Below, one piece after another: positions 1,776 to 45,568 of a DNA stretch of 54,236 nt. Both the position numbers and the translations under genes were made by a program. The DNA is taken from assembly GCA_018398765.1 (NCBI GenBank), contig JAHBMJ010000195.1:1-54236 (forward strand), in the 5' to 3' direction. Source of the DNA: Chromera velia (lineage: Eukaryota). Position 1 is the stretch's first letter. Every line of letters starts with the position of its first letter. A model generated the notes under the pieces. The model worked only from the letters and a program-made list of their open reading frames with translations. It was not told the DNA's origin and made no database searches.

Positions 1776-1839
1776 GTATCAAGATAGACTAATAATGCCC
1801 TGCTAGCTCTGGTGACAGATAGACATAGCGGGAAGGCCT

Positions 1840-1893
1840 TAGGGCGGAACATATCAATCAATCAATCAATCATTCAATCAATCAATCAATCAA
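1840..1893 (+). repeat. TAGGGCGGAACAT-(ATCA)n tag, probable 3' tail of a truncated LINE/SINE
   Basis: The same 13-nt motif followed by an (ATCA)n tract recurs at 3797-3837 with unrelated flanks. Confidence 0.5.
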
Positions 1894-2439
1894 AACTGTG
1901 ACTTAAAGACAAAATGGCTTTGTAGTTATTGATAATTGTCTTCAAAACACGTATTGAAGCCTACTAAGAATCACGTACACTTTTGAAATTTATAAAAATA
2001 ATCCTAGAAATAATCAAAATATTCAATCATAAATTCATAATCAATCAACTTCTGACAAAAGTGATTATATTTAATCAAATATGATTAGACAGCCTTGTAT
2101 AAACTCGACTAAAAACTCGATCGATCTACTAAAATCACAGCTAAAATCTTATAAACTTCTATAAGAATCATATAGGATAACCTGGATAAGATCCAACCTT
2201 ATAATCCTGTAAATGCTCCTCTTTACGTAGCTCTTCACTCAAGCTCTTGAATGCTCTGCCCTCCATCCCCCCCCCCTCCCTCATTCCCACGTTTCTTCAC
2301 TCTTTTTTCTGCCCCTTTGCACGAAGAGTCCTGATCTCCTCTGCTATCTCCTCCCTCTGTTCTTGCTAGGTTTTACAGAGAAAATACGCGATCTGGGGCT
2401 CCTTCCCTAGCTCATCATTAAGCTCCTCCCCCTGCCATT

Positions 2440-3640
2440 TAACAAAATGGGAGGCCCAGAAGAAAAGAGGCCGACCCGCATCGTCCTCTGCATTCACATC
2501 GATGCCGCGAGACAGGAGTGCTCATGCTATCTGCACCTGGTTGCTCTCGTACCATGGCAGACGGTCTGTCGGCCAAGGCTGTGCACACAGCAGGTGAAGC
2601 ACGGAGGCTTCTTGCAAGTTTACTGTGTGGCACGTTGGCACCGTTGTTAAGGAGATAGTTAACGATGGGTGGTGCTGTGTACTACACAGCCAGGTGGAGG
2701 GGAGTGGTGCCATCTGAAGCGACGGCATTCACATCCGCCCCAGCCTCGACCAAAGCTTACGCAATGTCGAGATCGGGCTCCGTCATCTTGTTGTGGGTGT
2801 TGATCCGTACGAATTCATTGTCGAATGACTCGAATCCGTGTCCGATCTGATGGAGGGGCGTGAGCCCCTGCACGCTCCGGTCACGTCTCCAGAGGAAGTG
2901 GCCGTATTTGTGTGCATTCTACTGATTCACATCAGCACCACGCGAGATGAGGAGACGCACGACCTCGTGCTGGTTTCTCCTGACGGCGTAAGTCAGTTCA
3001 GACTTACCGTTTTCATCGAGAGCATCTCTGTTAAGACCGTGGTCAAGAAAGAACTCAACCAGGTCAACAGAGCCCCAGTAGGATGCGTAATGAAGCAGCG
3101 GCTCTCCGCCCTCTTCCACATGGTGGACGTACGCCCCTTAAGAGACACGCCCCTTGAGAGACAAAGAAGCGTACCGTGTCAACAATGTCACGAATCTCTT
3201 GAGGAGAATGCCGTTCCCTGCTCCCGTAGCATAAACTTCACAAAAGCGTCATCCCCTACACCTGAGGCCTCTCTGCACCCTCGAGCACAAAGAGTGTCAC
3301 CATTCCCCACTGCTTTTTTCTTGCGGCGAATACCACTAACTGCTCAAACCACTTCACGCCTGCACGCACCAGGACTCTGGCTACATCTAGATTCTTCTTG
3401 GAGACAGCCCGCCATAGTGACTTAGTGGCCACTTTTGCCCCCGCACTCACGAAAATATTCACAGCCTCTAGATTCTCAGTCGAGACCGCGCGCTCTAGCG
3501 CTGCCTCCTTCTCTTCATTAAGCCCAGAGGACACAGCATCCACATCGGCACCGGCCTCCAACAACATTTTCAGCGTGGTGCTGTTCTTCAGAGAGTCTGA
3601 CCGGGTAAAGGCAGTCTTGCTGGTCTAAATCTCCTGCTGC
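2440..3640 (-). pseudogene. Ankyrin-repeat protein pseudogene (boundaries approximate)
   Basis: Ankyrin motifs LLEAGADVDA, LLHYASYWGSVDLVEFFLDHG, LLISRGADVN and ALVEAGADVNAVASDGTTPLHLAV, interrupted by in-frame TAA/TAG stops and frameshifts. Confidence 0.85.
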
Positions 3641-3796
3641 CCCTGTCCTCAAAGCGCAAAGTTCTTCTTCATAATGCCATGTAAATCGGCACCTACACGG
3701 AGCACAAGGGCGAGGTCGTCTTCCTGCCTTGTCGTGCTGAAAGTGGCAAGGGCCTCTATAACCATCTCGGGAGAGACCGGCTGGTACTTTTGAATC

Positions 3797-3837
3797 TAGG
3801 GCGGAACATATCAATCAATCAATCAAATCAATCAATC
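3797..3837 (+). repeat. Second TAGGGCGGAACAT-(ATCA)n tag
   Basis: Matches 1840-1893. Confidence 0.5.
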
Positions 3838-4677
3838 TGATCCTCTCACATATCGGTAAAAAGTTGTGATAAGTCTATTTTGCAATTTTTACTGTGCATC
3901 TGATCAAGTTCTCTCAAAAGAAAACGTTTGAATCCAGCTGCTTTGTGCGTAATTCGAAACAGGGCTCAAGAGTCGAGGGAGGAAAGATTTTTATTAATTC
4001 CCTTGGGGCTGACAGCCCATGTTCAGGCGCGAGAGGATTCCACCACTGCAGCGAGGGTATCTTTCCTGTACCTAAAAACACTCAGAACTCCACATAAAAA
4101 AGTGTCGAGGGAGTGAAGACCCTCCAGAAGGGAGTTTGGAACTTCAATCAGAACATTCTTTTTTTATTTCAAGAGACAGCTGCTTGGCTTGAACACGGAC
4201 AACGGCTACCAGTGAGAAGAAAAACGAAGTCACAGAACACATAATTATCAATAAAGAGTCTTTGCCTTGTCTAACGCAAGCAACCGATACGTAGACTTCA
4301 GCAGTGACAGAAAGATCGATTGTGTGCTCCAGTACATATCGTCTGGAGAATTCTGGAGATGTCTGGAGAACCATTGAAGAAATTTGGAGAACCGTTGCAT
4401 GGAAACTCCCGGCATGGCCCAGAAAGCGTAGCTGCATGAGGGGCACTTACCGAGACCGAGACTTACAAAGAGTTGAGGTGGAAGGCCTTGGATGTCGACG
4501 TACGTGCTGAATCTCCGATTAAAAAACTGCATGACGCACATAATTTTCATCATTGCCCCGGAAATATCGCTAAGAGGGCACTTAACAAAACTCGAACACT
4601 TCCGACTCCAGTTAATTCCGAGTCTAAAGTTAATTTCGCTTTCTAGGCCATTTGCATGGAGTGCGTCAGATCGATAT

Positions 4678-4997
4678 CGTCAGATTTCCTCCTAGACTAA
4701 GAACGTAGTCTAGTTGGAGATTTATCATACCTTACCTCCTTAAGTCTGTCAGTCAGAGTTCATTTCTAAGGACTCCATTCAAGCGATACCGGTGGACGAA
4801 GACTGTACGGCATGCTTCTATTTCTTTCTGTATTGCAAGTCTACTATTTTTTTCTCTGTATTGTCAGTCTGTCACTTAATTCTCTTAGTGCACTTAATTA
4901 ATGCCGGCCAGGCTTAGTATTGCGAAGTTAGTTTCCCAATCCCAGTTCTAGCAAGTTTGGTGGGTGATCAAGTCGCCGTACAGGCCACAACGTAACG
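4678..4997 (-). repeat. 3' LTR (320 bp)
   Basis: ~95% identical to 10109-10428. On the + strand it starts CGTCAG and ends GTAACG. Confidence 0.97.
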
Positions 4998-4999
4998 TG

Positions 5000-5013
5000 C
5001 CCTCTCCTCCCCC
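5000..5013 (-). other. Polypurine tract GGGGGAGGAGAGGG
   Basis: Purine run on the minus strand 2 nt before the 3' LTR. Confidence 0.9.
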
Positions 5014-5031
5014 ATGGCCTGTGCACCTCAC

Positions 5032-8000
5032 TTAGGCCGAAGCATAGAAATTGACAATCGCTTGTTTTGTATTCTTCAATGACGACAGGGGCTCCCATGA
5101 TGCGTCTTCCAATGGATATCCCCTCCAGAGAACCTTGTACTGCTTGGTCTTGCCCCTCCCTCGGACTACAAGGATTTTCTCGACTTCATACTCCTCCTCG
5201 GCCCAAGCGAGCATGCGGACAGACGGGGGGCGAGTCTCCCTACTCTGCTGACGGTAAGGCTTGCACAACGATATGTGAATGATAGGGTGCTTCCTGCTCT
5301 CAGCAGGCAAAACAACCTCCAGATTGTTTCAAGGCAGAATGGTCTCGACTTCGAATGGACCGAACCAAACTGAATCAAGCTTCCTAACATATTCCTCTCC
5401 CTTCCCCATAGGACGTGGCCACCATGTGCGGTGCACCAGGATGTAATCTCTTACTTGGATGTTTTCGGCGGGATGCCGACGGCGATTGGCGTTTCGGGTC
5501 ATGACTTGTTGGGCTGAGCGGAGTAAATCTCTCACTGCAGCGATCATCTGGCTGTACTCCTCCAGATATTCCCCTGTGTTGAAAGAAGGTTCGACTGAGA
5601 CTGGGAGATTGAGAGTAGGGGGGATAAGCGGGGACTTCCCACCATCAAGAGTGAGGGGTGCAAAACCAGTCCCCTCATAGACAGAGGAGTTGTATGCAAA
5701 CTTCACATCATACAGAAATTCAGACCACCGGGAGTGCTTCGTGTCTACCAGACACCATAAAGCCTCCTCAAGGGTGCGATTCATTCTCTCTGCGGCACCT
5801 GCTATATCGTGGTGCAATGCAGTCGCGAAATCGACTTCTGAACCGCTGGAGGCATGGAAGGTCTGCCAAAAGCGGGCGACAAAACGGGGGTCACGGTCGC
5901 AGACGATATGACGCTGGAAGCCTTTCTTGCATGAAACGTGCTGGCGGTAGATTTGCGCGGTCTCCTCTGCTCCTGCTGTACTGTGAGTGGGAATCAAGAC
6001 GACTGCCTTGATGAGCCGGCAAAGCACCATAAGAATCGCATCAAACCCCTCATCACTGGAAGGCGGCAAGTCAGTAAGGCGGTCAATGCAAATCGACTCC
6101 CAAGGGCATGAAAGGATAGAGAGGGGCTGCAGAAGCCCGAGGCGGGCCGCAGTGGGACTCTTGCTTCTCTGACACCGATCGCACGCACGAACAAAAGAAG
6201 CGACTGACCTCCACATCTTGGGCCAGTAGTACAATGACGCCACCTTCCGATAGGTCTTCCCCATCTCAAAGTGAGCAGCGTGCAGAGGGGAGTGCACCCC
6301 AGCCATCACAGTCCCCTGCTGAGATTTAGGGACATAGAGACGATTCCTCTCAAAATACAGGAGACCGGCGTGAAGCGACATGCCTCGCAAACGAAGGGCA
6401 AAATTAGGGGTGGGGGCGGGTGGGTACTGCTGTGACAGATGCTGAAGGACAGGGTGGAAGAAGGGATCGGCTGAGTATCCCCTCCTGCAGGAATGCATTC
6501 GTGAAGACCGTCAAACTCTGCAACTCCATCCCTACCCGAGACTGCTGTCCATCTCCCTTCCTAACTGGAGTCTGGCTCTCCTCAATCTCAGGAACCAAAT
6601 CGGGTAGATCAGCGTACTCTGCCCCTAAAGACCCAACGGGCTGGACAGACACTGGGACAGCCTCTGGCAGAGGCCTGGGACGTACAGGCAGACGCTGAGC
6701 GCAACCCATGCGAGAAAGCTTGGCGGAAGACGGTATAAGCTGCCGTGCGGCAGGAAGGTTTCGGGAAAGGGCGTCTGCCACAACGTTTGCTCTCCCTGAG
6801 ATGTACTTTGGAGTGATGCCGAGCTCCTGCATGAACTTAATCCAGTGTCGGACTCACAGGGAGCAAAATTCGAACGATCGGTGGCTAAATTTGTGAGGCT
6901 CTGGTGATCGGTCCATATTTCGGAGTCTGAAGACAGGAAGTGTCTCCATACCTTTACGAAATGCACAATCGCTAGAAATTCCAACTCTCGGACGGGGTAC
7001 TTGGCTTCCGTAGATGTTAGACAGCGGGAGCCGAAAGCAAGGGGGCAGTATCTCCTGGTTGCGCAGTCCTTTTAGAGGGCGACAGCTCTAATAGCTCCTA
7101 CAGACTGCAACACATCAGGTACCAGAATGACTGGCTTGCTGGGATCGGGGAGGGCAAGGGTGGCGTGCTCCTGTACTGCCTTCTTCAGCTCAGCAAACGT
7201 ACGTGACTGTGCAGTCTTCCATTCGAAGGGGACATTCCCCTGGAGGAGGAATGTGAGAGGCCCCACAAGAAACGAGAACCTCGGGACAAACCGGCGGAAC
7301 CAATTGGCCAGTCCCAGAAACTGGTGTAGAGAAGTGCGGTCTGTGGGTTGTGTGAACTCAGTGAGCCCTTGTATTTTCTCATGGCTCGGTCTGACCCCCT
7401 TCCCATCAACCACTAACCCCAAAAATTTCGCCTCTGTCCGAAGCCATGCGCATTTAGAGACCTTAACGTAGAGCTGGTGTTCCCTCAAAAGGGAAAGGAC
7501 TTGGTTGATGTGCTTGATATGCTCCTCCGGAGTGCGGCTAAAAACAAGAACATCATTAATAAACATAACAACACACTTGTTAAGGAGTGGTCTGAGCACA
7601 TCCGTGATGAGACGCATGCTGATAGAAGGTGCGTTACACAAATCAAACGGCATCACCAGCCATTCAAAACTGCCGTACCTTGTGACGAATGCCGTCTTCT
7701 CCTCATCTCTCTCCCTGATCCTTGTCTGATGGAAGTATTGCCGTAAGTCCAGAGACGAGAAAAATTTCGCGCCGTGGAGGCGAATCAGCAGCTCCTCTGG
7801 GTGAGGAATGGGGAATTTGTCGCGGACTGTAATCTTGTTGAGTCCCGTGAAGTCGATGTACATCCGTTGCGTCCTGTCTGCCTTCTGCATAAACAGGACT
7901 GGTACAGTATATGGACTTGTCGAAGGGCAGATGTGCCCTTTCTCGAGGTATGAGTCCAACTGCCGTCTCAGCTCATCAAGCTGACCGTATGACAGTCGGT

Positions 8001-8850
8001 AGGGTGCTCTCGCAGGAGGAGCGTGCCCTGCCTCGAGCTTGATCTCACACTCGATTTTTCGGTGGGGCGGGGGACCCGGAAGCTCGTCTGAGAACCGATC
8101 AAAATATTTTTCGAGAACCGGTCGGACGCTGAGCAGGACCTCTTTGCTCTGGAGGTGCTTTCAGAATCCTGTGTAGGTCGAAGAATTGATGGGATGGTCA
8201 GGAAGGAAAGACGAAAGGGGCGGTGGGTCTCCGGGCTTACCGGCAGACTGTAGGGAATGCACCCCCAACGTATCACTCACCCCCCCCTTCCGCACTGCTT
8301 CGAGGCGGAACAGATACATATGGGAACTGGGTCTCTTCATCAGCCGATGGAGCTCTCTCTGGCTAAAGAAGTCCTCCCCCTCCCCTTCCGCCGGGTACTC
8401 CTCGCTGTCAAACAGGAGTAAGTCTCTCCCGGTTGGCAACTCACACGCGGGGATCGTGAGGGCCTTCTCATGGTAATATAAGATAGGAATGTACTCCTCA
8501 CAGAAGGGTATCCCCAACACAACATCGTAATCATCGTCCAGATCGACTACTGTGAGATCCAGAGGCGTGCTGAAGCCCTGGATACAGAGGGGAAGGCCTT
8601 TGACCTCCTGAGAAATCGGAAGCTACGGTCTCCCGTTCAACCTGCCCTTGCATGCGGTCGGCTCATCGAGATCCCAGAGAGTGAAGCGGTTTGACTCGGC
8701 AACGGAATGGGCAAAGAAGTTCGAATCTGCCCCAGGATCGTACAAACAGCGAACAGGGACCCCTGCCAACCGACCGTGGAAGCGGATGAGCTTCCCCGGT
8801 GCGTGGGAGGTTTTCATAGAGTAGTATCTGCGAAACAGGTAGCCGTTTTG
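5032..8850 (-). pseudogene. pol: pol polyprotein remnant: protease, RT, RNase H, integrase, chromodomain
   Basis: Protease CLYDPGADSNF. RT RDKFPIP..SLDLRQYFHQ..KTAFVTRYGSFEWLVMPF..FINDVLVFS. RH EFLAIVHFVKVWRHFL..TDHQSL and NVVADALSR. IN HSPLHAAH..CDRCQ..CDRDPRF..AERMNRTL. Chromodomain YEVEKIL..YKVLWRGYPLEDASWEP. Broken by stops and frameshifts. Confidence 0.95.
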
Positions 8851-10029
8851 CATGCCTGCATTCTGATTCTGCTGTCGCGACCCCTACAACCCCGGCAGGA
8901 AGTCAGTGACTGGGCGTGCGGCAAGCTGCCACATCTGCTGGTGCTGCATGGGTGAAGGTGCAAGGCCTGAGGGCACCACCAGACCCTGAGGTTGCATGAA
9001 AGGGTTGCTGACCCCCATATGCCTGAAATTCCGATTGTCAGGGCGGGGAGGGGCATTTCGATGCTGCTGTTGTTGCTGCTGAAATGACTGATATGGGAAG
9101 TTTTGGTGCTACTGGGGGAGGAGACGGTTGTTAGACTTTGGGCACCTGTTCGCCCGGTGGCCCTGTTAGTGGCAGCTGAGATATTTGTCTTCTCTGATGT
9201 GCCTCTGCACCTGCTCGTACGACAGCGCATATAGGTGTGACAATCTTTCTATTTTTATTGGTACAGGCCCATCCATGTTGCGCTGTTACACCGTATGCCC
9301 GCCCCCATCGGCGCGCTCGCCTCTGATCAATTGGTCTTCCTCGTCTGCCACTGTCATGACGGCCTCAAGTCCTGTGACTCTCCGACACTAGCCCCGACGC
9401 TTTACAGCGAGACGAATGTCAGTTGGCAATCCCCTGAGGTAGTCGTGTAGCAGGTCGGCTTCTGTGACATCCTCAATTTGCATGGCCTTCTTTATGAAGT
9501 CATCGGTGTACTTTTATACTGTCTTGTTCCCACATTTCATCGCTCAGACTTCCTCTCGCAAACATGTCTGAGCATTTAGGTCTTTGAATTTCTTCCTAAT
9601 CCTCTCTTTGAAATTCTCCCACCCCTGGAACGGCGTTCGAAGGTTTTTAAGCTCGTACCACCTCTGCAGGGGACAGGATAGATACTGATATGCTGCTTCG
9701 CATTTCTCAGCTTCCGATGCTCGCGATAAGCGAAGCCATCTCTCTATCGTACGGAGCCGATCTAGGAGTTGTTTGCGACTGCCTGCGTACGTGAACGGCT
9801 CTTTGGGTTTCAAATTTGACTTCACGACCGCTGGGAGGCTGTTCACCGCGGTGCCCTGTTGTGCTGTCACGACTGTCTACTGGTAGTTGATCAGCTCTTG
9901 GTGCAGCTGTTGATTCTGTTGGGTTAACTGCCCATTTTGGACCTGCAGTGCCTGGATCTCAGCTTACTGCTGCTGTTGAGTTTGAATGAGCTGCTGGATG
10001 AGCTCAGGAGTGATACTGGACAGATCCAT
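8850..10029 (-). pseudogene. gag: gag remnant with coiled-coil N-terminus and degenerate CCHC knuckle
   Basis: ATG 10029: MDLSSITPELIQQLIQTQQQQ*AEIQALQ..NYQ*TVV, then KPKEPFTYAG..WENFKERIRKKF. Knuckle YLSCH*QGHRANRC at 9183-9142. Confidence 0.85.
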
Positions 10030-10090
10030 CCTGCCCGCACGTCAAACAACGGTTGAGAGGCAGAGCAGGGTCTCCCTGAGGTGGAGGACC

Positions 10091-10108
10091 GGGGCTCTCC
10101 TGCTACCA
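10091..10108 (-). other. Primer binding site TGGTAGCAGGAGAGCCCC (tRNA-Met-like)
   Basis: TGG-starting sequence directly abutting the 5' LTR. TGGTAGCAG resembles the complement of initiator tRNA-Met 3' ends. Confidence 0.75.
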
Positions 10109-10428
10109 CGTCAGATTTCCTCCTAGACTAAGAATGTAGTCTAGTTGGAGACTTATCATACCTTACCTCCTTAAGTCTGTCAGTCAGAGTTCACTTCCAA
10201 GGACTCCATTCAAGCGATACCAGTGGACGAAGACTGTATGGCATGCTTCTATTTATTTCTGTATTGCAAGTCTATTATTTTTTTCTCTGTATTGTCAGTC
10301 TATCACTTAATTCTCTTAATGCACTTAATTAATGCCAGCCAGGCTTAGTATTGTGAAGTTAGTTTCCCAATCCCAGTTCTAGCAAGTTTGGCGGGTAATC
10401 AAGTCGCCGTACAAGCCACAATGTAACG
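10109..10428 (-). repeat. 5' LTR (320 bp)
   Basis: Direct repeat of 4678-4997. Confidence 0.97.
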
Positions 10429-10797
10429 GATATTCCGTATGCAGGGCCGCGGAACCGGCTTTTTTAAATTAATTGAAGCTCTGGGTGAGCCGCGCCCTGC
10501 CGCGGCGCGGCGAGTAGCTCTGACAAATGAGTGACAATTAATTATAATCTCTGTGCTATGCATCCACGAACCCTTATTTAAAAAATTATAATTGCCGACA
10601 TAAATGCATGGCCCCGGAAAGTGAAGCGGGGGGCACTTACAAAACAGAAATACCCCAGCCCGCAGTGTCTTTCACCAAAAACCCGGCCCCGAAAGGCTGA
10701 ATTTGCGAGATGCGTGCGTCAGATGGGTTTCAGATCTCTACTTACCCCCGGGCTTTTTTCCCGGGGGAGGGGGGGGTTCCGCGCATGCTTTTTTCTC

Positions 10798-10992
10798 NNN
10801 NNNNNNNNNNNNNNNNNNNNNNNNNNNNNNNNNNNNNNNNNNNNNNNNNNNNNNNNNNNNNNNNNNNNNNNNNNNNNNNNNNNNNNNNNNNNNNNNNNNN
10901 NNNNNNNNNNNNNNNNNNNNNNNNNNNNNNNNNNNNNNNNNNNNNNNNNNNNNNNNNNNNNNNNNNNNNNNNNNNNNNNNNNNNNNNNNNNN
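10798..10992. other. Assembly gap
   Basis: Run of N. Confidence 1.
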
Positions 10993-11069: not shown

Positions 11070-11135
11070 TTGCGTCAGAATCTTGCGTCAGATGCATGAA
11101 TGGATGCCATGCATGAATGCATGCATGCGTCTGAC
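11070..11135. promoter_or_regulatory. Putative promoter motif cluster (GCGTCAGA, TGCATG repeats)
   Basis: Two GCGTCAGA and several TGCATG(CA) copies ~250 bp upstream of the 11350 ATG. TGCATGCA is a known ApiAP2-bound motif in apicomplexans. Confidence 0.4.
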
Positions 11136-11349
11136 CTTCGTGCAATTAATGATCGCGATCGAGGGCCGGCTGGATTTCTGACCTGATTCCTGAATGAGTC
11201 CCACAGTGGCAAATACCCGTCGTCAGGCTGTCAGTCAGATTCACTTACGCGAGTGTGGGTCCGCTAGTTATCGTCCATCGCGAAACTTTTCGGAGCCGTA
11301 TGAAGGGAATTACATATATGACACTCGACAAGTCTCCTTTTCTTTGAGC

Positions 11350-11988
11350 ATGCCTGGAAGATCCTCCTCCGCGGTTACCGCCAACGGTGCAAACGCAAAG
11401 AAGACCAAGAAAGAGGCGCACAACCCCCCTCCGGAGAGCAAGAAGACCTCTGCTGCCCATGCAAAGAAGAAACCCGACTCCGCCAGGGCCAGTGGCACGA
11501 ACCTCAAGAAGATGACGCTGAAGGACGCAATCGCACATTTCTTGGGCACACAGACAGACGTGGTGGGACTTGCCACGATCAAGAAAGCCATGAGTGACAC
11601 GTACGGGTTCGCTGCGGGAAGCGCTTTCAACAAGCGCCTCGCAAAGACGCTCACCGAAATGGTGGACTCGGAGACGATCGGAAAGAATCGTGGAAGTTAT
11701 CACGCAGGGAAGGATTCTGTTGCGGGGATCAACATAGCACTGCGTGAGGAAAAGAGGGCGGAAGCGGAGAGACGGGAAGCAGCTGGAGACATCAAATGTC
11801 CCTTCTGCGAGCGGTGGTGTTCAGGCCTCACCTGCTTCGTTGGAGAGGACAGCATTGCCCGTGGGGGGGAGTATCGGTGTGAGCACGCTGGCTGCAGGAA
11901 GACCCTCTGGACCTGGATCTCTGACGGCTACACGATCGGACGCCCAGTCGAGTACAAGGTCGCGTACAAGGGGCTTTACAAAAACTAG
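11350..11988 (+). CDS. Intronless 212-aa protein: Lys-rich N-tail, linker histone H1/H15-like winged helix, C-terminal Cys4 Zn-ribbon-like domain
   Basis: Clean ORF. DAIAHFLG..GLATIKKAMSDTYG..AFNKRLAKTLTEMVDSETIGKNRGSYH follows the H15 pattern (AI..SL.AIKK....Y...F...L..AL..LV..G.....GSY/F). CPFC..CEHAGC at the C-terminus. Confidence 0.75.
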   Translation: MPGRSSSAVTANGANAKKTKKEAHNPPPESKKTSAAHAKKKPDSARASGTNLKKMTLKDAIAHFLGTQTDVVGLATIKKAMSDTYGFAAGSAFNKRLAKTLTEMVDSETIGKNRGSYHAGKDSVAGINIALREEKRAEAERREAAGDIKCPFCERWCSGLTCFVGEDSIARGGEYRCEHAGCRKTLWTWISDGYTIGRPVEYKVAYKGLYKN

Positions 11989-12677
11989 ATAGGGGGCAGG
12001 CAGGGTGACTCTGCAAGCTGGCAAGTGCACCTTAATTGTCCCACAGGTTGGAGCCCCGTCATTGTTAGACCTGTTGCAAAAAGAGCCCAATGTAGAGGTT
12101 CTCTGAAAGCCGTAAAGCCCGGAAGAGTTGTTCGAAGCCCAAGGGGGAGTGTCTGTTGCCACCCATGCAAGCAATCGCCGACCTTTCAGCCTAGCCTCCG
12201 CCGGCACTCCGGGCACTGTTCTAAGCACTGTCTTATGTTTCCGTTCACTTCTCTCCCAATCCATTCCTCTTTTTTTCAACGATTGCATGCTGCTATCATT
12301 AGTCAGTTTTTTTGTGTCTTTTGCAAAGACTCTTTTTTTAATGCGTACTATAGTTTTATATGTTTTAGGTTTTTTTTTGTACATACCGTCTATGATACTC
12401 ATCATCATGTTTCATCCCCATCGGTCTCTATAGCGCGTCTAGCGTTTGGTGTTAGACAGACTCGGAGTGCGTTTTTTATATAAGAATCATATAAGAAAAT
12501 CTAGAGAACCGTTCTTATTTTCAGTTGTTTTTAACTAGGTTTTTAAACTATTGACTAGACTATTGAATGATGCAACCTTGCTAGCAACCTTGCTGTTGGC
12601 CTTAAGACTGCATAACAATCTAGATAACAACCTTACGCATCGGACGCTAAATCAGCTAGACGTAAGTATAAATTATA

Positions 12678-14186
12678 CTAGGCGACCAATACAAAAAAAA
12701 AACAAAAAAAAATAAGAGCATTTACCCTGTTTAGTTTTTTTTTTTTTTGTTTCTAAACGTGTTCACGCTGACAAAAAAAATCGATTCGGAAGTCAACACC
12801 TAGGTTAAAACTAACATGATTTCACTTAGTCTCTAAGTCAGTCCGAGAGTCAATGACGTATCAAGTCCGAGGTTCTAGCCTAGGTTAAGTCAAAAAACGG
12901 GCAATAATAAATATGCAGAAGAAAGAGAGAGATAAGAGAGACAGCGCGCCCAGTCTAGCAGCCAGTGAAGTACAACAGACACCGCTATTCTTCCCTTCCT
13001 TAAGTCGCTCCCCTACCTGCCCCCCGCCTAGCCCTCCACCCAGATTTGCATCCAAGATGCCGTCATGCCCCTGACCACCCCCAGCCCCTCCTCCTACGCC
13101 TCCCGCTCCGAAAGGTATGAAGGACCAGGGAAGAAAAGACACGCTGGTGAGAAGAATGTGTCGTCTGATTCCTTGCCGACTCTTCGTTACGCTATCATTA
13201 ATATTTATTAATCATTTTTTCTGTAGTTCAATTTTCGTTTCTTTCCTCCTTCTTCATGTCTTAGAGGAGGGGATGAGGGACTTGAAAAAACAAAGAAGCT
13301 AGTGGGGAAGACAACAGAGAATGGTAAGAGAAATGTGTCTCCATGGGCGTCTCTTCGCTTCCTGCTTATGCTCTTTAGGGTTTCCCCTCCAGAGTTAAAC
13401 TCATTTCTCCGAGTTGCCGTCCCTTCCTTTCCAGCCTCTTACTTATCTTTCTCCTAGATCTTTCTTTTGCGTTCTCTTTCTTTGGGGGCAGCGGCCGCGG
13501 CTTTATAGCTAGGAGAGGACTTCTGCATCTTTCCTGAACTCTCTAGAAAAAATTTTTCAGAGGAAGAGAACTTCTAGCAGTGTCAAACTCTCCAGAAGAA
13601 ACATTCTGCTTAAGTAAAGCAATTATGAGCTGCAAACGGCTCAAGAAGAGGAGATAAAGCTTCTGAGATACAACCATTAGTGAGTAGAAAAACACAGGCG
13701 CTTGTAGACGGGAGTTTCGAGCGGTTCTGAATTAGAAATCTGAAGCCTGATCAAATGTCAACCTCTTTTTTGACCTTATGAATTCCAAGGCCGCTGAAAC
13801 GCCTTTCTACCCTTTTGAACGTGAAGGCAGCCTTAAGTAAAGGTGTATAGCAAGACAGATAGCATGGCACGCTAAGCAGCTTGCAGTAGGCTACTAGATC
13901 GAAGCTGGTGTTTGAGGTAAAAAGGCCGTAAGGTCAGATAAACCGCTGCAGGTGTTCGACTGAATTTGAGCGAAGTTGCCGGCTGAAGATGCACGTATAC
14001 AACCGGCCAGTTTGCATGCATGCGCGGCACGCAGCACGCGGGGGTCCTGCGGTGAGGACTCGATCGGGTACCTACGGGCCGCTGGCCAGAGCGTACGACA
14101 TAATCATATATATGCAGAGCTTTCTAAAAAAAAAAAGAAAACCAAAAATGAGATTTTAGCTTTTTTTTTTTGTAGTGGTCGCCTAG
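12678..14186. mobile_element. 1.5-kb TIR element with CTAGG termini and 8-bp TSD
   Basis: TIRs CTAGGCGACCAATACAAAAA / TTTTTGTAGTGGTCGCCTAG. Perfect TSD AAATTATA at 12670-12677 and 14187-14194. Confidence 0.88.
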
Positions 14187-14466
14187 AAATTATATTATAA
14201 AAAATATAAGTTTTTGAAGCTCGGTTTTCACTTGATAAATTTGTAATTGGTTTTATTGATCGATATACAAAACTTAAGGCTAACTGTAGCTGACCCTAGA
14301 GTTGACCGACAATGTATGGACTAGGGTGGAACTCGAAACATAAATCCTAATCCTAAGGTTCATCAACATTCTTTATAAAAAGTATTAAAAACTATATAAA
14401 GAGAAAAAAAATGTGAACACATATGTTATAAACACTTAGGCGGGAGAAAGGACTTAAAGCAACGCC

Positions 14467-14724
14467 CTAAGTATGATTTATAAAGTTATTTTTAAAATAA
14501 AGTCCGACCACAGACTTTAGACTTTAAAACTTCTTTGGTTTTAAAACTTTAAGAATAAAAAGCTTGAACACATTGATATGTTGTTTAGGATTGTTTAGCC
14601 TTTTAAAACATCGGTATGTCAAAAAAAATTTAAAGTGCGTTTCAAAAGTTATATTATAGAGTCCACAGACTCAAACGAGACTTTAAACTTTATTTCACTT
14701 TAAAACTTTACAGATCACACCTAG
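14467..14724. mobile_element. MITE, second copy of the 1366-1695 family
   Basis: Ends CTAAGTATGATTTATAAAGTT / AACTTTACAGATCACACCTAG. TSD GCAACGCC vs GTAACGCC. Confidence 0.8.
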
Positions 14725-15683
14725 GTAACGCCCCATTACCGAGATGTGAAAGCTATTCAAAATTTAACAAGCAGAGACGAGCAGGCTAGGACAGCTTTCC
14801 ATCAAGAATAAATCACTGACTCACTTGAAGGATCATTGAAGATTCCGACAAGTAGATGAATAAAAAGTTGGCTGGAAAGTTGATCTGTGAAGACGGTCCC
14901 TGGGAGAATTCCAATCTATGAGGCTAGCAAGAAAGCGAAAATCTATCGATCGATCGACTCGCTAGCTATCGCATGCTCAAATGAATCGCGCAGCGCAATC
15001 CGTCATTCTACGCGCTGCGGGAACCCCAGAAAGGCAGACAAGAGTCAGTAGTACTGCACTCTTACTGTCATCCTTGGAATATAAGCAGTGACAAGACCGG
15101 CATTGGTGCCTAAAGGAACGGAAAGACCCAGGCAAAGGTGAACAACTGTTGTTTTAGTCTACAACACATTGATTGCAAGAAATGTGCGCAGCATTTCTCA
15201 GTCTGACACAATCGTTTGAATCGCATCGGTGCGCCAATCTTGACGTATGCATGAATACCGCATTGATCGACGGCGCGCCACTTCGACGCGCGTACATGAA
15301 TGCCGCTGCATGACCCGTCACCGCACGCCACACTCGAAAAATCAGGAACTTGAATGTGATGCATTATGATTACAGCAAGGGCTGCAAGGCACTAAAAAGA
15401 TGCCCCATTACGCCCCTTCCCTCCCCCCCCCACATCATTTATTAATAGCATTAATCATCAATCACTTCTGATAAAATTTAATAAAATTATTAGCAATGAT
15501 TCCTAAACAATGATGAAGAATTGAAGATTACATATAATTAAGATTACATGATCAAAGATTCAAAATATGTTAGTCAAAATGAGAAAGAATACCGCACAGA
15601 AAATATTACAAAATCCATATGACGTTAATTGCTTAAACCACTACTACAGCAATCGAGAGCGATCGATCGAATCATGCAGTCGA

Positions 15684-22792: not shown

Positions 22793-24047
22793 GCCCCGGA
22801 GAGGAGAGACAGTCTCTCTCGATTCGGTGTGGGTGTGGATATTGTCTGTCTGTCGGTCGGTCTGCCCCCCTGCCTATCTGAGGGTACTGGCGGATTTGGA
22901 CTCTGCATCTGCTGACTTGGAAGGAAGGAAGGAAGGAAGAGTTCAACAAAAGACAAGAAAAGAAAAGAAAAGAAAAGAAAAGAAAGGGAAATGCAGGGCG
23001 CCCTTCCTCTCCTCTCCTCTCCTCTTCTCTCCTCTCCTCTTCTCTCCTCTCCTCTTCTCTTCTCTCCTCTTCTCTCCTGTCCTCTTCTCTCCTCTCCTCT
23101 CCTCTCCTCTTCTCTCCTCTCCTCTCCTCTTCTCTCCTCTTCTCTCCTCTCCTCTCCTCTTCTCTCCTCTCCTCTTCTCTCCTCGCCTTTTCTCTCCTCT
23201 CCTCTTCTCTCCTCTCCTCTTCTCTCCTCTCCTCTCCTCTCCTCTCCTCTTCTCTCCTCTCCTCTTCTCTTCTCTCCTCTTCTCTCCTCTCCTCTTCTCT
23301 CCTCTTCTCTCCTCTTCTCTCCTCTCCTCTCCTCTTCTCTCCTCTCCTCTTCTCTCCTCTTCTCTCCTCTCCTCTTCTCTCCTCTCCTCTTCTCTCCTCT
23401 CCTCTTCTCTCCTCTCGTCTTCTCTCCTCTCGTCTTCTCTCCTCTCCTCTCCTCTCCTCTTCTCTTCTCTCCTCTCCTCTCCTCTCCTCTCCTCTTCTCT
23501 CCTCTCCTCTTCTCTCCTCTCCTCTCCTCTCCTCTCCTCTTCTCTCCTCTCCTCTTCTCTCCTCTCCTCTTCTCTCCTCTTCTCTCCTCTTCTCTCCTCT
23601 CCTCTCCTCTCCTCTTCTCTTCTCTCCTCTCCTCTTCTCTCCTCTTCTCTCCTCTCCTCTCCTCTTCTCTCCTCTCCTCTTCTCTCCTCTTCTCTCCTCT
23701 CCTCTCCTCTTCTCTCCTCTCCTCTCCTCTTCTCTCTGCACAGGATGGGTCCTCCACGACCGCTTCATTCAATTCATTCATCCATCCATCGATCCAGCCA
23801 TCCATCACACTTGTTTGTTTGTTTGTTGATTTTTCATTTTTGCCCTACTCCCTCCCTCCCTCATTCGTGACTGACTGACTGACTTCAAGTCAGCAAACTG
23901 CGAGACGGCTCTTCTCCACTGCTTCTCCCTCTCCTTCCTTGCGACTTCAAACCACGCCCCCGCAGCTCCCGTCAGAGCCCTGTGACGCTCCCCGTTCGGC
24001 CCCACGAGGTCGGCCCCCTCCGGGTGATTCACGAGTGCAATCAGCAT
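15684..24047 (-). CDS. Large multi-exon hypothetical protein (possible degenerate RRM-like domain); exon structure only partly resolved
   Basis: GC-rich coding blocks bounded by YAG/GT at about 24047-23884, 22510-22408, 22020-21972, 21625-21520, 20956-20753, 20219-19423, 18852-18779, 17899-17320 and 17050-15684, separated by microsatellite-rich introns. [24 protein letters not shown] resembles RNP2/RNP1. Confidence 0.6.
18104..18285. repeat. Intronic ~36-bp minisatellite, ~5 copies
   Basis: GTTCTCCACGAGGGGAAAAATGAATGAGGGAGAAGA repeated. Confidence 0.95.
21086..21439. mobile_element. Intact intronic MITE/foldback with perfect 67-bp TIRs
   Basis: TGGCGGACAGTCATTCTGTCCG...CGGACAGAATGACTGTCCGCCA. 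Internal CGCGCCCGAGTT subrepeats. Flanks GGATA/GAATA (possible 5-bp TSD). Confidence 0.92.
23004..23737. repeat. ~730-bp near-pure polypyrimidine tract of CTCCT/CTTCT pentamers
   Basis: Directly visible; only a few G interruptions. Confidence 0.98.
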
Positions 24048-24483: not shown

Positions 24484-26770
24484 TCATTGACAAAAGTTCC
24501 TCTCCGTCCCCGCTTCGCGTGAAGGCAAAAAAGAGCATATAGCAATTCCCCGTCTTTCCAGGACCAACGCTGTCACTCAACGGCCCGTCATTGTCTCCGT
24601 AGAGGTCCAAGTCGCTCTGCATTCACTCACTCATAGGAACACAAACAATCAGACTCAGCCACATACACAGATAGATGCGCGTGCCTGTATGCACATGAAG
24701 ACACGCTCACAGGCATCAACACACGCGCCCGCACCTACACGTGCACTTAATTCTGTAAAAAACGCATACACATGCAACGAGCATGCAAGAGAGAGATAAA
24801 CCGGCAGCCAGACAGACAGGCAGGCAGGCAGGCAGGCAGGCAGAGAGAAACACAACACATGCGAGAAGGAGAGCAACGGGACCAAACCAAGGAAGAGGCA
24901 CGCAGCCAAACAAACAAACAAACGAAAAACAAATATGACAATGAAATGAACGTCTGTCTGACCAATCCGAAGGGGCCCCCAGGCATCATCATTAAAAAAA
25001 AAAATGCAATAAAAAATCAAAAAATTATTTTAAAAAATCAAACGGACCAATCCGAAGGGGCCCCCAGGCATCATCATCCACACCAGCTGCCAGCACGTCC
25101 ACTTGAACAGGACCTTGGGCGCCGTCTCCTTCTCTTTCTCCTTCTCCCCCTTTTCATTCTCCGAGTGTCCCCCCTTCTCTTTCTTCGCGGCTGCCTCGAC
25201 CAACTCCACCTCCCCCTCTATCTCCTCCATCAGGTCCCTCACCGTCGGGCAGTTGTTGACAGCCAGAAGGAGACGGCAGAGCGCAGGGAGACGAAGCAGC
25301 GTCTCTAAAGACGGACACACTTTCGATTGCCGTCTCTGCTTCGGCTGTTGAGGGGTCTCTGCCCCCATCTTCCGCTGCGGTGCCTCCACAGTGCCCCCTC
25401 CTCCGCCTGCTGGGTGTGGGTGCAGCGTTGCGGGCCCATTGGCTGCCTGCGGGCCGTCTCCTCCTCCTCCCAGCAGCACAACGGGTTGATTCGAAGAAGA
25501 GATAGGGGAACGCGCTGACTGGGAGGTTGATGAGGAGGGGGCTCCCCCTCCAGCTGCTCCTCCTCCTTGGGGCGGCACCCCTTTTGCATTGAGCATCATC
25601 TCGGCAAGAGACAACCCCCTCCCGTCTGCAGCTGCCACTGCCGCAAGGACGGCATGTAACTCGGGGTCAATAACTTCTGCTTGTGCTGCTGCTCCTGACT
25701 CGGCTTGGGGGGGTGCAACAGATGTCCCCTCCCCGACATTGGAAGATTCGGCGGTAGTGGTCGGGACCCGTAAACCGGTCTGCAGTCCTCCCACAATCCC
25801 ACTAACGGAATCAGATTCGTCCCCCCACCCGACGGGGTTCAGAGCATCTGACGCAGAGGCAGAAGCCGAACGGGAGTGAGAAGAAGGAGAGACATTTCCA
25901 CCGAGACCCTCCATATCTTCGGCCCCCCACTCACTTTCTCTGTCTCCCCCCCTCGTGTCCCCGTCCCCATGCCCATCAGGCGGAAGCCCCGACCCCTCAG
26001 GCCCCCCACCGGAGACGGCCCCTTTTTTTGAAGAATTCCGATGGAGAACAGTGAGGCCTTCCCGACTCTGGTGCTCGGGTTCCTCCGGTAGGGCCTCTTC
26101 CTGGGCAGCTAGGGGAAGCTCAGGGGACTGCTTGGAAAGGGAGTCCTCCTTCGTGTATGGGGGTACAGCGGCCGTAGTTTGGTTGTGTGTATGCTGCTGC
26201 TGAGTGGAGTTTTGGGAGAGGCTTCTGTGTAACGGCGCGTTGAGAACTGCCCTCATCTGGTTACGAGAGGACGTGCGGGCGGGTGGAGGAGCCGCGTGGC
26301 TTTGTTGCTGTTGCTGCTGTTGCAGGTGCACCTCTCCCTGCTGCGGCGATGCTTTGAGGAGACCGGCGGGGTAGGGGGTGGAGGAGGGGGACATGGCTGC
26401 CCCCGGCACGTCAGCCAAGACGGGAGGAGGGTAAGGGAGGTTGGTAGAGTTCGTTCTGGACACCCCCCCAAGAGAATGGGAAGGGGAGGCAGAGGGCATC
26501 ACAGGATTCGTTGGCAGAGGAGGAAGAGCAGCGTCCGCAGCAGAAGGGGACAAGCCATATTGAGCGTTCGGCTGTGATGTTTGTTGTTGAGGTGGGTATT
26601 GTTGGCTGTTTGTCTGGCCGGGCATCTGGAAGCTTTCTGCTGTCTGATTGAGACCCCCAGCCATGGGGTTCATGTGGGGATACTGAGGGGAGGGGGCACG
26701 GACGGAGGCGGAGTGACTCGAGGAAGTGGCGGTGCCGGCATAGGCGGTCGCACGCTGCAGAAGGGGAACG

Positions 26771-29968: not shown

Positions 29969-32433
29969 ATGCAGTCTCTTCTTCTACTCCCGGCTTTTGC
30001 TGTTTGCCTTCTTTTAGGTTGGCCGTCTCCGTCTCTTGCCTCTCGGGGCTCTGAGACGGCGGGTGGGGGGCCTCTCGAAAGATTTCCTCCCAAGGTCCAG
30101 TTCTTTTGGACGGACATCGACCATTTCAATTTCGTCTCCAAGGTCAGAGACAGCTTCTGGTGCCTCACCTGTCCATGAGCTCATTTTCTTTCCTCTTTCC
30201 TTTCTCCAGTCGCTGCCGTCTCCGCCTTCACATCAAGATTTCCTTTCTGCCTGTCTTGTCATCTTTTCCTCCTGAGCCCCTCTCTGCAATTTGCTACACC
30301 CTCCTCTGCTCACCCTTTTCTGACCCTTCGGAGGAGAAAACAGCTTTCTGTTTTCTCTTTCCGAGGTGCCTCTACGAGTTCATTCGGAGTGAAAAATAAG
30401 TCTCCGTCTCCGTGCACTACCTGGTGTCTCGTCGTGCATCTTCACTGTAGCTCTGCTCTGAATTCCTTCTTTTTCTCCACGTTGTCATCTACTCTCCCAC
30501 ACCCCTCCCTCCCTTTCCCTGTTTCTTTTCTTTCCTTCCGCCTCTTTCTCTCTCTCTCCCCTCCATCTCCCCCTTTGACCCGCCCTTGCTTCCCTCAACC
30601 CCTCCCTCCCACCCTCTGTGTGTGTGTGTACGTGAGTGTGAGTACAAGTGTCTACACCGATGCTGGCTGTGTGCATAATGATGGCACATCCCCGTCTCGT
30701 CTCTTTGGCCTACACTGAAATGAACTGTCAGCAGAGTCCCGCCCAGAAGTTTGCCGTGAAAGTGCTGACGTACGATGGCTTCTACAACCGTCTCCCCGAG
30801 TCCCCCCTCTTGGTCTATTTGGGCAACGAGGGGGTGATCGAGAGTTTCTACAACAATACCGGGGCAATGTTCGAGATAGCAGAGGAAATGGGGGCGCTGG
30901 TTGTCTTCATCGAACATAGGTGGGTCTTGGTCTCTTCCCCGTTCCTCCTTTGTCTGTCTCTGGTTCTTTTTTCTGTCGTTTCCCCCTCCCTCCCTCCTCT
31001 TTGATGTCCTGCCGTACGCTCTATTCTGCTGTGAAACATCTCCACAACTCTATTCTTTTTTTTCTGAGAGAGCTGCGGTCTTCTTGAAAGACGACTCGAG
31101 TGAGTAAATTGGGACTTGAAGTCTGGAAATCGTTCTTTTTTTCCCCTCTTATTTTCTTGCTTCGCTTTTCTTCTTCCCCTTTTTTGCTGCGAATGTCTAA
31201 AAATGTTCCCGAAGCAACACACCCTTGGGAGCCCATGTATGCGTGTCTCTAAATGTGTTTGTGGATGTTTTTCATACGCATGAGATCTATATATCGATAT
31301 GATAATAAATGAATTGCAAGTCTGCATGCAGGTATTACGGTAACGGCACCTCCCTTCCTTGGGGGGGGAATTCTTTCACCGAAGAGCACTTGGCCTTCCT
31401 CACTGTCGAACAGGCAATGGGGGATTTTGCGGAGGTGCTCTCTCAGATGCGCACAGATCTGGAATGCACGGGGGCCAAGGCATGTCCCACTATTCTGTTT
31501 GGAGGCTCTTACGGTGCCATGCTTGTCGTGTGGTTTCGGCAGAAATACCCACACCTCTCTGTGGGGGGTGTTGCTGCATCTGCCCCTGTGAACACTTTTG
31601 CTGATGATTTGGATCTTGGGGCTCTGTTTTGGAATGCTTCCCTGTCTGTGTTCGGGTCTGAGGGTAAGATTGTGGGGTGGCCTCAGTGTGAGCAGACTGT
31701 GAAGAAGGGAATGGATGAGATACAGAAAAAGTCGTTGCGGCAGCTTTCAGGCACATTCCCTGTCTGCAAGAAGATGGAGACCGAGACGGACAGACTGCGT
31801 CTGGAGGCGTATGTGCGGGGTGCGCTGTCGACTCTGGCGATGAGTGACTACTCAGTTCAGGCAGACCTGATGCAGCCCCTGCCTCCCTTTCCTGTCAGAG
31901 AGGCCTGCAAAAGGATGCGGCAGCATGTGCGCAAAGGGAAAGGTTCGTCTCCCCTCCTGAAGGATCTGGTTGGAGCAGTGAACCTGATGGTGAACAGCAC
32001 GGAGAAGCTGGAGTGCTGGGATTTGGGAAGAGAGTTGATTGAAGAAGAAGGAGGGAGAGAAAGAGGGAATGCAGGAGAGGACTTCTCTGGGAATTTCCCG
32101 CCGTCTCTCTCTATGGGGGGCAATTCTCTTGGAGACATCTGGAAGGTCTGGTCTTTTCAGGTAATTGGGAGGGGGGGGTCTTTTCAGGTAACTAAGCGTC
32201 TGTGGTGGGGGCGGGGAGGGATGCATTAGTTTTGTCGAGCAGACAGACTTGCATGAATGCATGCGGACTTCGAGTGTACGCTCTTTTTTTTGTTCAGCAG
32301 AGAGTGTTAACAAGAAGAAGAAAGCTGCATTGGTTGTTATCCGAAAGAAAGAAAGATGCGGTCTTCTATTGATTCTCGACATTTCGATCAGGGCAACGGG
32401 TCAGATACACACACTGGCATCAATAGACAGAAA

Positions 32434-32471
<38 letters not shown>

Positions 32472-32496
32472 CACGGATACACTGTATGCTGCTTGA

Positions 32497-32538
<42 letters not shown>

Positions 32539-32583
32539 TGTGTGTCTGTCTGTCTGTCTGTCTGTGTCTGTCTGTCTATGTGT

Positions 32584-32615
<32 letters not shown>

Positions 32616-33115
32616 AGGTCTGCACAGAGCTCCCCATGCAGCCTCTGACTTCTGAGGATTTCGGCTTCCTCATTCCCTTCTCTGAGGACCATTCCCGCGC
32701 CCTGAAGGCCGCATGTGCCCGTCTGTTCCCCCACACCAAGTGGAGGCCGTTGTGGATGCGCACAGCCACGGGAGGCGACTCTCTGGGTTCCGTGTCGAAT
32801 CTCATCTTCAGCGATGGAGCCAAGGACCCCTGGGGGGCGGGGGGTCCGAACAGGGCGTGCTACGAGAGAATCGTTCAGGGAAAGTCCACAGAAGGCTGCG
32901 AGGAGATGAAGCCCCAAACGGGGTCTCCTCAGAGCTTTGCACTCCACCCCTCAGCTGTGCGTTTGTTCATCAGAGACGGCGCGCACCACGCAGACCTGCG
33001 CGCATCCGACCCGAATGACAGTGAGGAACTCCGGAGAGCGCGAAGGAAGGAGAGGGAGGTGATGAGGAAGTGGATTGACGAGGCATTGGGGAAAGAGGTT
33101 TTGAATGTCGCATGA
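29969..33115 (+). CDS. Serine peptidase family S28 (lysosomal Pro-X carboxypeptidase / DPP-II like), 4 exons: 29969-30142, 30732(or 30735)-30919, 31332-32160, 32618-33115
   Basis: Signal peptide. Motifs [36 protein letters not shown] (catalytic Ser), WFRQKYP, ASAPV, FQVCTE, DPW (Asp) and GAHHADL (His). Splice phases are consistent. Confidence 0.95.
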
Positions 33116-33604
33116 GGGGATCGATCGAGGCCGGGAGGATTGTCACTAAGTCGGTCGATCGAGCCTGATAATTTTAGCCTTCGATGATGCAGGTTACAGG
33201 TTGCAGGCTATCAATGGGTCCGCCTGTTCTTCTTTCATTTAATTAGACTTTTTGTCGTGCTTCTCGTATCACTGCCAAGACCTGATCATCCACCTTCTAA
33301 ATGATTTATTTACAATATGCTAATCTGATTCACTAAAGAAAAAAATGTAGAAGAAACACCTTTTTAAATCCAGTTTTTAATTGTATAAACTAAGTTAAAC
33401 TCTAGCTTAAACCTTAGAAAGAAGACTTACTAAATAGACTTATCATAAATAAATTTTCATTGAAAAAGTTTTTAAATTATTGTTAATTGCTAGATTTATA
33501 ATATTGGTTGCATTGTCTGTAGGATATCATAGTACATTCAATAATTTGTCTAGTATAGTGTATACATTAGCATAGTATACATGCTAGTATACATGCATGG
33601 TTTA

Positions 33605-40338: not shown

Positions 40339-40381
<43 letters not shown>

Positions 40382-40464
40382 AAGCAGCATACAGTGTATC
40401 CGTAGCACACACACATACATACACACACACACACAGAGTCACGGATACACTGTATGCTGCTTGA

Positions 40465-40501
<37 letters not shown>

Positions 40502-45511: not shown

Positions 45512-45568
<57 letters not shown>

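Follow-up and report, generated by a model that had tools for sequence, protein, structure and literature searches.

The window analysed in this work is a stretch of 54,236 nucleotides of the alveolate Chromera velia (contig JAHBMJ010000195.1, forward strand). We consider two parts of it in particular: a full-length long terminal repeat (LTR) retrotransposon on the minus strand at 4678-10428, and, 20 kb from this element, a tandem duplication that leaves one intact peptidase gene and a promoterless second copy of its 3' part. Gradual, strand-symmetric C-to-T mutation is found in repeats, in intergenic DNA and in the promoterless duplicate, whereas the expressed gene mutates in this way at a rate that is lower by a factor of at least about six and probably more than thirty. 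An earlier note on this DNA had described the retroelement as killed almost entirely by transitions and had taken this as support for hypermutation.

The element is bounded by two direct LTRs of 320 nt on the minus strand, the 3' LTR at 4678-4997 and the 5' LTR at 10109-10428, and is flanked by a 5-bp target site duplication, GATAT, whose left copy (4673-4677) is repeated at 10429-10433. A polypurine tract (PPT) adjoins the 3' LTR at 4998-5013, and a sequence resembling a primer-binding site (PBS), starting with TGGTAG, lies immediately after the 5' LTR at 10097-10108, both on the minus strand. Between them, a decayed gag-pol frame (5032-10029, minus strand) contains gag, a zinc knuckle, protease, reverse transcriptase (RT), RNase H, integrase and a chromodomain. 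In the window copy itself, Pfam recognizes the RT domain (7411-7887; RVT_1, E 8e-28), RNase H, the integrase zinc-binding domain (6157-6333; Integrase_H2C2, E 1e-16) and a terminal chromodomain at the integrase C-terminus (5047-5190; Chromo, E 8e-13, 48.5 bits vs. a cut-off of 25.1), all on the minus strand. From these matches we therefore classify it, on sequence grounds, as a chromodomain Ty3/Gypsy retrotransposon of the chromovirus type. In the sister gene model P0134, gag through integrase form a single protein; the domains follow the order protease, RT, RNase H, integrase, with a weak protease match (RVP_2, E 0.002) in that model. A UniRef protein of C. velia CCMP2878 matches the RT frame at 100% identity; sister models of the same species come next (81-89%), and the nearest matches outside Chromera are Gypsy RTs of plants, algae and fungi (38-49%). 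An expansion of chromo-fused elements in C. velia is noted in passages of an earlier study (10.1101/2021.11.30.470311), and the element itself is of the kind expected for this species. No RNA dataset is listed as containing it.

The coding frame is broken at many points. It contains 14 premature stops, ten of which fall on codons for Gln, Arg or Trp in the sister copies, three upstream of any sister model and one inside a 12-nt insertion in gag (9380-9392, minus strand), which is seen against the contigs of all four sequencing runs compared (X1-X4, see below). The earlier note had listed only three stops, one in the zinc knuckle and two Gln-to-stop changes in gag; these are present, but the damage was understated. 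The five motif breaks that it described are all in the sequence: the catalytic motif of the RT (xIDD) reads FIND at 7552-7563, FGL reads FDL, MCID reads MYID, HFG in the integrase zinc-binding domain reads HFE at 6265-6273, and the CCHC zinc knuckle at 9142-9183 (minus strand) reads YLSCH*QGHRANRC, with C changed to Y and Q to a stop. In sister copies the first four motifs have the expected D, G, C and G, and the knuckle of P0128 and P0134 retains its C and Q. The note had overlooked the 12-nt insertion and two deletions, both of the latter shifting the frame of pol relative to other copies: one of 17 nt near 6488-6502 (contigs of X3 and X4) and one of 1 nt in RNase H at 6886-6887 (contigs of all four runs), both on the minus strand. 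Either alone would have broken pol, so the death of the element is due almost entirely to transitions by count only. Because the changes affect only about 7% of the element's G/C sites, composite indices of the type used for repeat-induced point mutation (RIP) are uninformative here (TpA/ApT 0.62; CpG observed/expected 0.70, similar to neighbouring genes).

The LTRs align without gaps over 320 nt and differ at 16 sites, 15 of which are transitions and one a transversion, exactly as the earlier note had estimated. The A/T allele is present in both LTRs, as it had also stated, at 4 sites in the LTR starting at 4678 and at 11 in that starting at 10109 (p=0.12). Classified by the context of the G/C allele, the differences affect 7 of 26 available CG sites, 5 of 52 CT, 3 of 36 CA and 0 of 27 CC. 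This count is weak on its own: if transitions make up two thirds of changes, p=0.014, and if they make up 80%, p=0.14; the decisive data are those of the family, in which 265 of 277 changed places are transitions (run X1). Because the LTR differences postdate insertion, they are not the result of complementary DNA (cDNA) editing or RT error. The Kimura two-parameter (K2P) distance between the LTRs is 0.053, and its transversion part is 0.003. The claim that LTR dating would overestimate the age of the element holds if the clock is calibrated on expressed genes, given the 37:1 ratio of G:C>A:T changes between silent and expressed DNA described below, but not otherwise; no absolute mutation rate for C. 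velia was found in the literature searched.

The direction of change was determined at two levels. At the DNA level, contigs of four of the seven listed runs were compared with 4600-10108, and a place was counted where at least a quarter of the contig depth differed from the window; note that these runs may share the window's strain and are not independent organisms. From window to contig, run X1 gave A>G 110, T>C 111, C>T 24, G>A 20 and 12 transversions; run X2 gave 111, 113, 19, 17 and 12, and runs X3 and X4 gave 101, 104, 17, 21 and 13. Of the 265 transition places in run X1, 221 thus have A/T in the window copy (221:44), evenly divided between the strands (110:111), and transitions exceed transversions by about 22:1. 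At the codon level, the window copy was aligned with 27 sister gene models, of which two pairs were treated as isoforms and merged, and 1303 codons were scored that had at least three other copies with a clear majority and passed a local-identity filter. The window copy is changed at 111 of these codons, with 96 G:C>A:T, 3 A:T>G:C and 4 transversion changes, 7 ambiguous ones and 1 multi-step. The 24 other gene models contain 312 GC>AT, 38 AT>GC and 28 transversion changes, with 17 ambiguous and 14 multi-step, and their GC>AT changes are split 152:160 between the strands. Per opportunity, the rates are 0.035 for GC>AT, 0.0044 for AT>GC and 0.00065 for transversions, i.e., G:C>A:T occurs at 53 times the rate of a transversion path and 8 times that of A:T>G:C, on gene models that avoid stops and at sites of which 56 of 242 changed in more than one copy, partly by shared descent. 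The earlier note would have been contradicted by an ordinary transition/transversion ratio without GC>AT directionality across the family, and neither is what these alignments give.

The same tendency appears in other families. In an unpolarised test, we counted alignment columns with only transitions or only transversions in four Chromera Gypsy families, most pairs of which share 47-64% identity (74-79% for families 1 and 3), and in nine control clusters of related elements from other organisms. The four families gave 249:24, 41:7, 12:0 and 39:4, i.e., ratios of 10.4, 5.9, 12:0 and 9.8, whereas all nine controls fall between 0.9 and 3.1; the pooled counts are 341:35 vs. 354:194 (p=5e-21, with columns that are not independent). 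The control records vary in quality and have probably been subject to stronger selection, and are therefore a rough yardstick. Singletons point toward A/T by 29:4 in family 2 and 26:6 in family 4.

Sequence contexts were read from the codon-level test, using the window's neighbours, since the DNA-level listing covered 40 of 293 places. The relative rate depends on the 3' neighbour of the cytosine (CG 1.82, CA 1.27, CT 0.70, CC 0.47; p=2e-18), corresponding to changed fractions of 6.4, 4.4, 2.5 and 1.6%, respectively. The 5' neighbour has no effect (p=0.68), and the trinucleotide rates (TCG 1.76, ACG 2.62, GCG 1.72, CCG 1.47) show no preference for a 5' T. Even the CC context alone is changed at 25 times the per-path transversion rate. 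The changes alternate between strands at random (215 runs vs. 214.2 expected, z=0.08), show no strand heterogeneity among 19 copies (p=0.50) and are scattered evenly, in a Poisson-like manner (variance/mean 0.84).

The duplication offers a natural experiment on the same process. An intact four-exon gene for an S28 serine carboxypeptidase lies at 29969-33115 on the plus strand (copy 1). Unit 1 of the tandem duplication (31010-38839, plus strand) starts inside intron 2 of this gene; therefore copy 1 keeps the promoter and the first exons, and copy 2, in unit 2 (38840-47269, plus strand), does not, although it retains the 3' part of the gene, its flank and the arrays described below. The units are 7.8-8.4 kb long, the twin gene copies are 8 kb apart, and the ends share an 8-nt microhomology (31010-31017, 38840-38847 and 47262-47269). 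The duplication is real: contig depth in run X1 rises from 13.2 to 25.2 at 31010, the junction is present in both runs that cover it, and 15 of the 21 copy-2 alleles within the covered stretch are seen in contigs, all of them C>T or G>A. Contigs of runs X3 and X4 have no match on the peptidase gene. The spliced protein P0262 (528 residues, encoded on a 1854-nt contig) spans all four exons and agrees with copy 1 at all 15 sites where the copies differ; copy 1 is thus expressed. Outgroups side with copy 1 at 13 of these 15 sites, including a glycine that is invariant in 117 of 117 sequences. Outgroup residues separate the two copies in this way, whereas Pfam scores are inconsistent between them (93.6 vs. 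95.3 bits for exon 3, 27.6 vs. 22.6 for exon 4).

We compared the copies over 31010-33400, excluding a microsatellite at 32431-32617 with an unreliable alignment (eight differences: five transversions, two changes in copy 2 and one in copy 1). The A/T allele occurs 37 times in copy 2 and at most once in copy 1 (3.3% vs. 0.09% of G/C sites), a ratio of 37:1 with a lower 95% bound of about 6. By strand, these are 15 C>T and 22 G>A changes in copy 2, against none and at most one, respectively, in copy 1. When only intron and synonymous sites are considered, the ratio is 15:0 (p=6e-5), or 23:0 when the downstream 285 bp are added. The raw counts for the gene body are 31:2 plus 6 transversions. Decay of copy 2 is neutral, with 14 non-synonymous or stop changes vs. 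6 synonymous ones for opportunities of 467:283, and its premature stop (39968-39970) is a Trp-to-stop change. The changed fractions in the duplicate (CG 7.5, CA 3.9, CT 1.9, CC 1.7%) follow the same order as in the element family. Downstream of 33400, changes are similarly frequent in the two copies (25:20 and 14:10). Tandem arrays (21:23 and 7:21) were excluded from the rate comparison because of possible unequal exchange.

These arrays, with units of 199-222 bp, are located at 35379-36758, 37960-38837, 43383-45160 and 46388-47260; their units differ mostly by transitions in a CA/TG context, and neither a tRNA nor an Rfam family was found in the window, arrays included. The G+C content is 32-41% in the intergenic regions 400-2200, 12200-15600 and 33400-35378 compared with 52-59% in genes, as expected from long-term C-to-T decay. 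Two old AT-rich matches, 1596-1697/14629-14726 and 1366-1435/14467-14536, have transitions and transversions at 7:9 and 7:4, without bias; they are short, 80-84% identical and poor in G/C.

On these data, we are confident that C. velia has a C-to-T mutation process specific to silent DNA. After insertion or duplication, C:G turns into T:A on both strands, one site at a time and in every dinucleotide context, at about 50 times the per-path transversion rate, and a transcribed gene is spared, whichever the strand, in its exons and introns and over some 300 bp downstream, unlike its twin 8 kb away. What marks DNA as a target would be its chromatin or expression state, and neither the pairing of homologous copies nor reverse transcription. 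In the least certain part of the scheme, an enzyme would deposit 5-methylcytosine (5mC) loosely, CG first and then CA, and the methylated bases would be lost as thymine when cells divide normally, on the pattern of Dim2 in Zymoseptoria. The outcome is that transposon frames are destroyed, as Gln, Arg and Trp codons become stops, and that intergenic DNA is probably pushed toward A+T. We give an even chance to the full account, in which this decay is common to repeats and the promoterless duplicate, and absent from the expressed copy, because cytosines in silenced chromatin are methylated and then deaminated; the chemistry taken by itself, 5mC followed by deamination, we regard as equally likely to be right or wrong. 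A gradual, strand-symmetric, CG-first spectrum restricted to silent DNA is what deamination of 5mC in methylated heterochromatin would leave, and the order CG>CA>CT>CC resembles the preference of de novo methyltransferases.

Several points weigh against this account. In the supplementary table of a methyltransferase survey, C. velia has 0 DNMT1, 3, 4, 5, 6, CMT, Dim2 and DRM and 4 DNMT2, and the same source reports 5mC as undetectable in species with only DNMT2 or DNMT6 (PMC12344493). No methylation data or methylome of C. velia was found in the literature searched. CG is changed only about four times as often as CC, and 60-64% of events lie outside CG, a pattern that unrepaired deamination of plain cytosine could give likewise. 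The Dim2 mutator of Zymoseptoria has over 98% of its changes at CA and spares CG, which differs from the order seen here. The sparing of the expressed gene comes from one duplication, the boundary at 33400 was set after the data were seen, the silent status of copy 2 is read from its missing promoter and first exons, and a single transversion in the gene region does not show whether mutation of every kind, rather than C-to-T alone, is low in the active copy.

The survey table itself has gaps, e.g., 0 DNMT2 for Plasmodium falciparum, and a missed enzyme is therefore possible; the four DNMT2-family proteins, being the only C5-methyltransferases listed for C. velia (listed apicomplexans have 0-2 DNMT2, and Vitrella is given no DNMT of any type), are the first candidates (PMC12344493). 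C. velia also lacks AMT1, an adenine methyltransferase that marks active genes elsewhere, according to another study (PMC12695648). We tentatively entertain the idea, though we consider it rather unlikely, that C. velia has its own genome-defence mutator, independent of fungal RIP, in which the expanded DNMT2 or an unrecognised enzyme marks silenced DNA and converts C to T, killing transposons and pseudogenes and sparing expressed genes with their introns. DNMT2 is normally a tRNA methyltransferase.

The main rival to methylation is the possibility that spontaneous C-to-U deamination occurs everywhere and is repaired efficiently only in active chromatin. It fits the involvement of all four contexts, CC included, the scatter of changes without bursts and the fact that no DNA-type methyltransferase is listed for C. 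velia (PMC12344493, table). It requires a repair gap for this single lesion, however, as transversions and AT>GC changes remain low in silent DNA. A mild CG excess without methylation is known in yeasts. Transcription-coupled repair alone is insufficient, since protection extends to both strands. Altogether we judge this explanation somewhat improbable.

A second rival is an independently evolved, RIP-like homology sensing that mutates any duplicated DNA, the expressed copy having survived because selection maintained it or because the machinery had no access to it. Every mutated sequence that we examined is in fact repeated, both strands and a linked 7.8-kb duplication are affected, and both copies mutate outside the gene. 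RIP, however, gives many clustered, strand-coordinated changes per event, and the random strand alternation and even scatter show no such bursts, although many small rounds could blur this; with single scattered changes, selection could not have cleared the introns and synonymous sites (15:0). The element's TpA/ApT of 0.62 is not RIP-like, no CpA-only or TpCpG context is seen, and RID/DNMT4 is reported only from fungi and counted as 0 in the C. velia row of the survey table (PMC12344493). We therefore consider homology sensing improbable. Classical fungal RIP was rejected: the context is not narrow, the changes form neither bursts nor strand runs, and the expressed partner is unaffected. The hypermutation hypothesis of the earlier note accordingly stands in the sense of directional G:C>A:T change, but not if fungal RIP is meant.

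Editing by an AID/APOBEC-like cytidine deaminase, acting on element cDNA or on single-stranded chromosomal DNA, would account for a spectrum of nearly pure C-to-T. The strand symmetry (110:111 and 152:160) excludes editing of minus-strand cDNA, the intron-containing DNA duplicate was never reverse-transcribed and has the same spectrum, and there is no 5' base preference (p=0.68), with which a chromosomal deaminase without such a preference remains compatible; we hold this explanation to be very improbable. APOBEC-type cDNA editing was rejected outright, as one-strand G-to-A change, a 5' preference and confinement to retroelements are all absent. The least probable explanation is an ordinary genome-wide GC>AT bias with purifying selection on the working gene: transitions and GC>AT changes exceed others in most eukaryotes and the control clusters reach 3:1, but the Chromera families stand apart from all nine controls, and selection does not remove changes from introns and synonymous sites.

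The mutation of silent DNA can be compared with three known systems. In Z. tritici, Dim2 raises the number of mutations in methylated repeats during mitosis more than tenfold; over 95% of these are C-to-T, with over 98% specificity for CA, according to passages of that study (PMC8016269). Common to both species are gradual, almost exclusively C-to-T changes in repeats, a tie to chromatin domains rather than to meiosis, and the involvement of non-CG sites; C. velia has no listed Dim2. Ascomycete RIP, which depends on RID/DNMT4 (PMC12543289, in part), also acts on both repeat strands, destroys transposon frames and affects linked duplications; C. velia differs in having no listed RID, no CpA-only context and no bursts, in sparing the expressed member of a pair in which RIP would mutate both, albeit at one locus (37:1 in the gene region), and in being an alveolate. 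In basidiomycetes, RIP-like TpCpG hypermutation in Pucciniomycotina and passive CpG decay in other lineages are described in passages of PMC3318451. As there, the C. velia process is deduced from context-specific C-to-T rates in transposon copies, with CG at the top; in C. velia there is no 5' T preference and most events are outside CG.

The LTR ends of the element deserve a separate description. With chromoviruses it shares the order gag-PR-RT-RH-IN-chromo, the PBS, the PPT and the 5-bp target duplication, whereas its LTRs end in CG...CG instead of the usual TG...CA, which is common but not defining. CG is present at all four ends (4678-4679, 4996-4997, 10109-10110 and 10427-10428), and the clean target duplication is compatible only with this boundary. 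The joint between LTR and PBS has no extra letters in the contigs of all four runs; the LTR end beside the primer site is common to other copies, with a variant in one contig per run. In the available parts of two plant surveys, one of 50 genomes found the first T invariable (10.1101/137141), the other lists TG..TT, AA..CA, TA..CA, TG..GA and TG..TA as exceptions (PMC5659011), and CG...CG is not among the end types given. By implication, the integrase accepts CG-3' ends, CG being the dinucleotide that mutates most readily in this genome. A 9-mer matching the LTR end occurs five times in the window vs. 0.48 expected (4662-4670, 10715-10723, 11071-11079, 11084-11092 and 25847-25855); one of these occurrences lies 7 nt from the insertion site and three lie upstream of a gene at 11341. 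The 9-mer is possibly a host promoter motif that is also present in the LTR.

This neighbouring gene (11341-11988, plus strand) is a single-exon open reading frame of 215 amino acids with a weak linker-histone H1/H5 match (E 0.009, under the cut-off), and an assembly gap of Ns lies at 10799-10992, 370 bp to the right of the element. On the other side, a decayed ankyrin-repeat coding fragment (3256-3624, minus strand) lies between two copies of a short TCAA-repeat sequence (near 1839 and 3797), and the region 1839-3830 may be another dead element or a captured gene. Further along, a perfect 67-bp inverted repeat (21086-21152/21373-21439, 0 differences) in a gene intron has the form of a young miniature element, and a long TCCTC/TTCTC simple repeat occupies an intron at 22998-23740.

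C. velia is the closest photosynthetic relative of the apicomplexans, and targeted C-to-T destruction of repeats has been regarded as peculiar to fungi and dependent on RID or Dim2. In the literature searched, with subscription journals mostly outside, nothing joins Chromera with RIP, transposon methylation or deaminases, and only fungal papers were found on RIP-like decay. The passages and 12 of 16 supplementary files of the Chromera genome paper give transposon amounts only, about 30 Mb in Chromera vs. 1.5 Mb in Vitrella (PMC4501334). What is new is thus the mutational regime, and a host without listed RID or Dim2.

A strong form of such targeted decay in a host without listed RID or Dim2 points to an unknown methyltransferase, deaminase or partition of repair. 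The peptidase pair is a clean, testable case of an expressed gene that mutates far less than its silent twin, which is a debated question. In practice, repeat ages and the divergence of duplicate genes in the C. velia genome are not readable on a single clock, and LTR finders that require TG...CA would overlook the CG...CG family. Finally, the finding provides a lead on how transposons are restrained in the Chromera lineage and on the origin of its AT-rich intergenic DNA.

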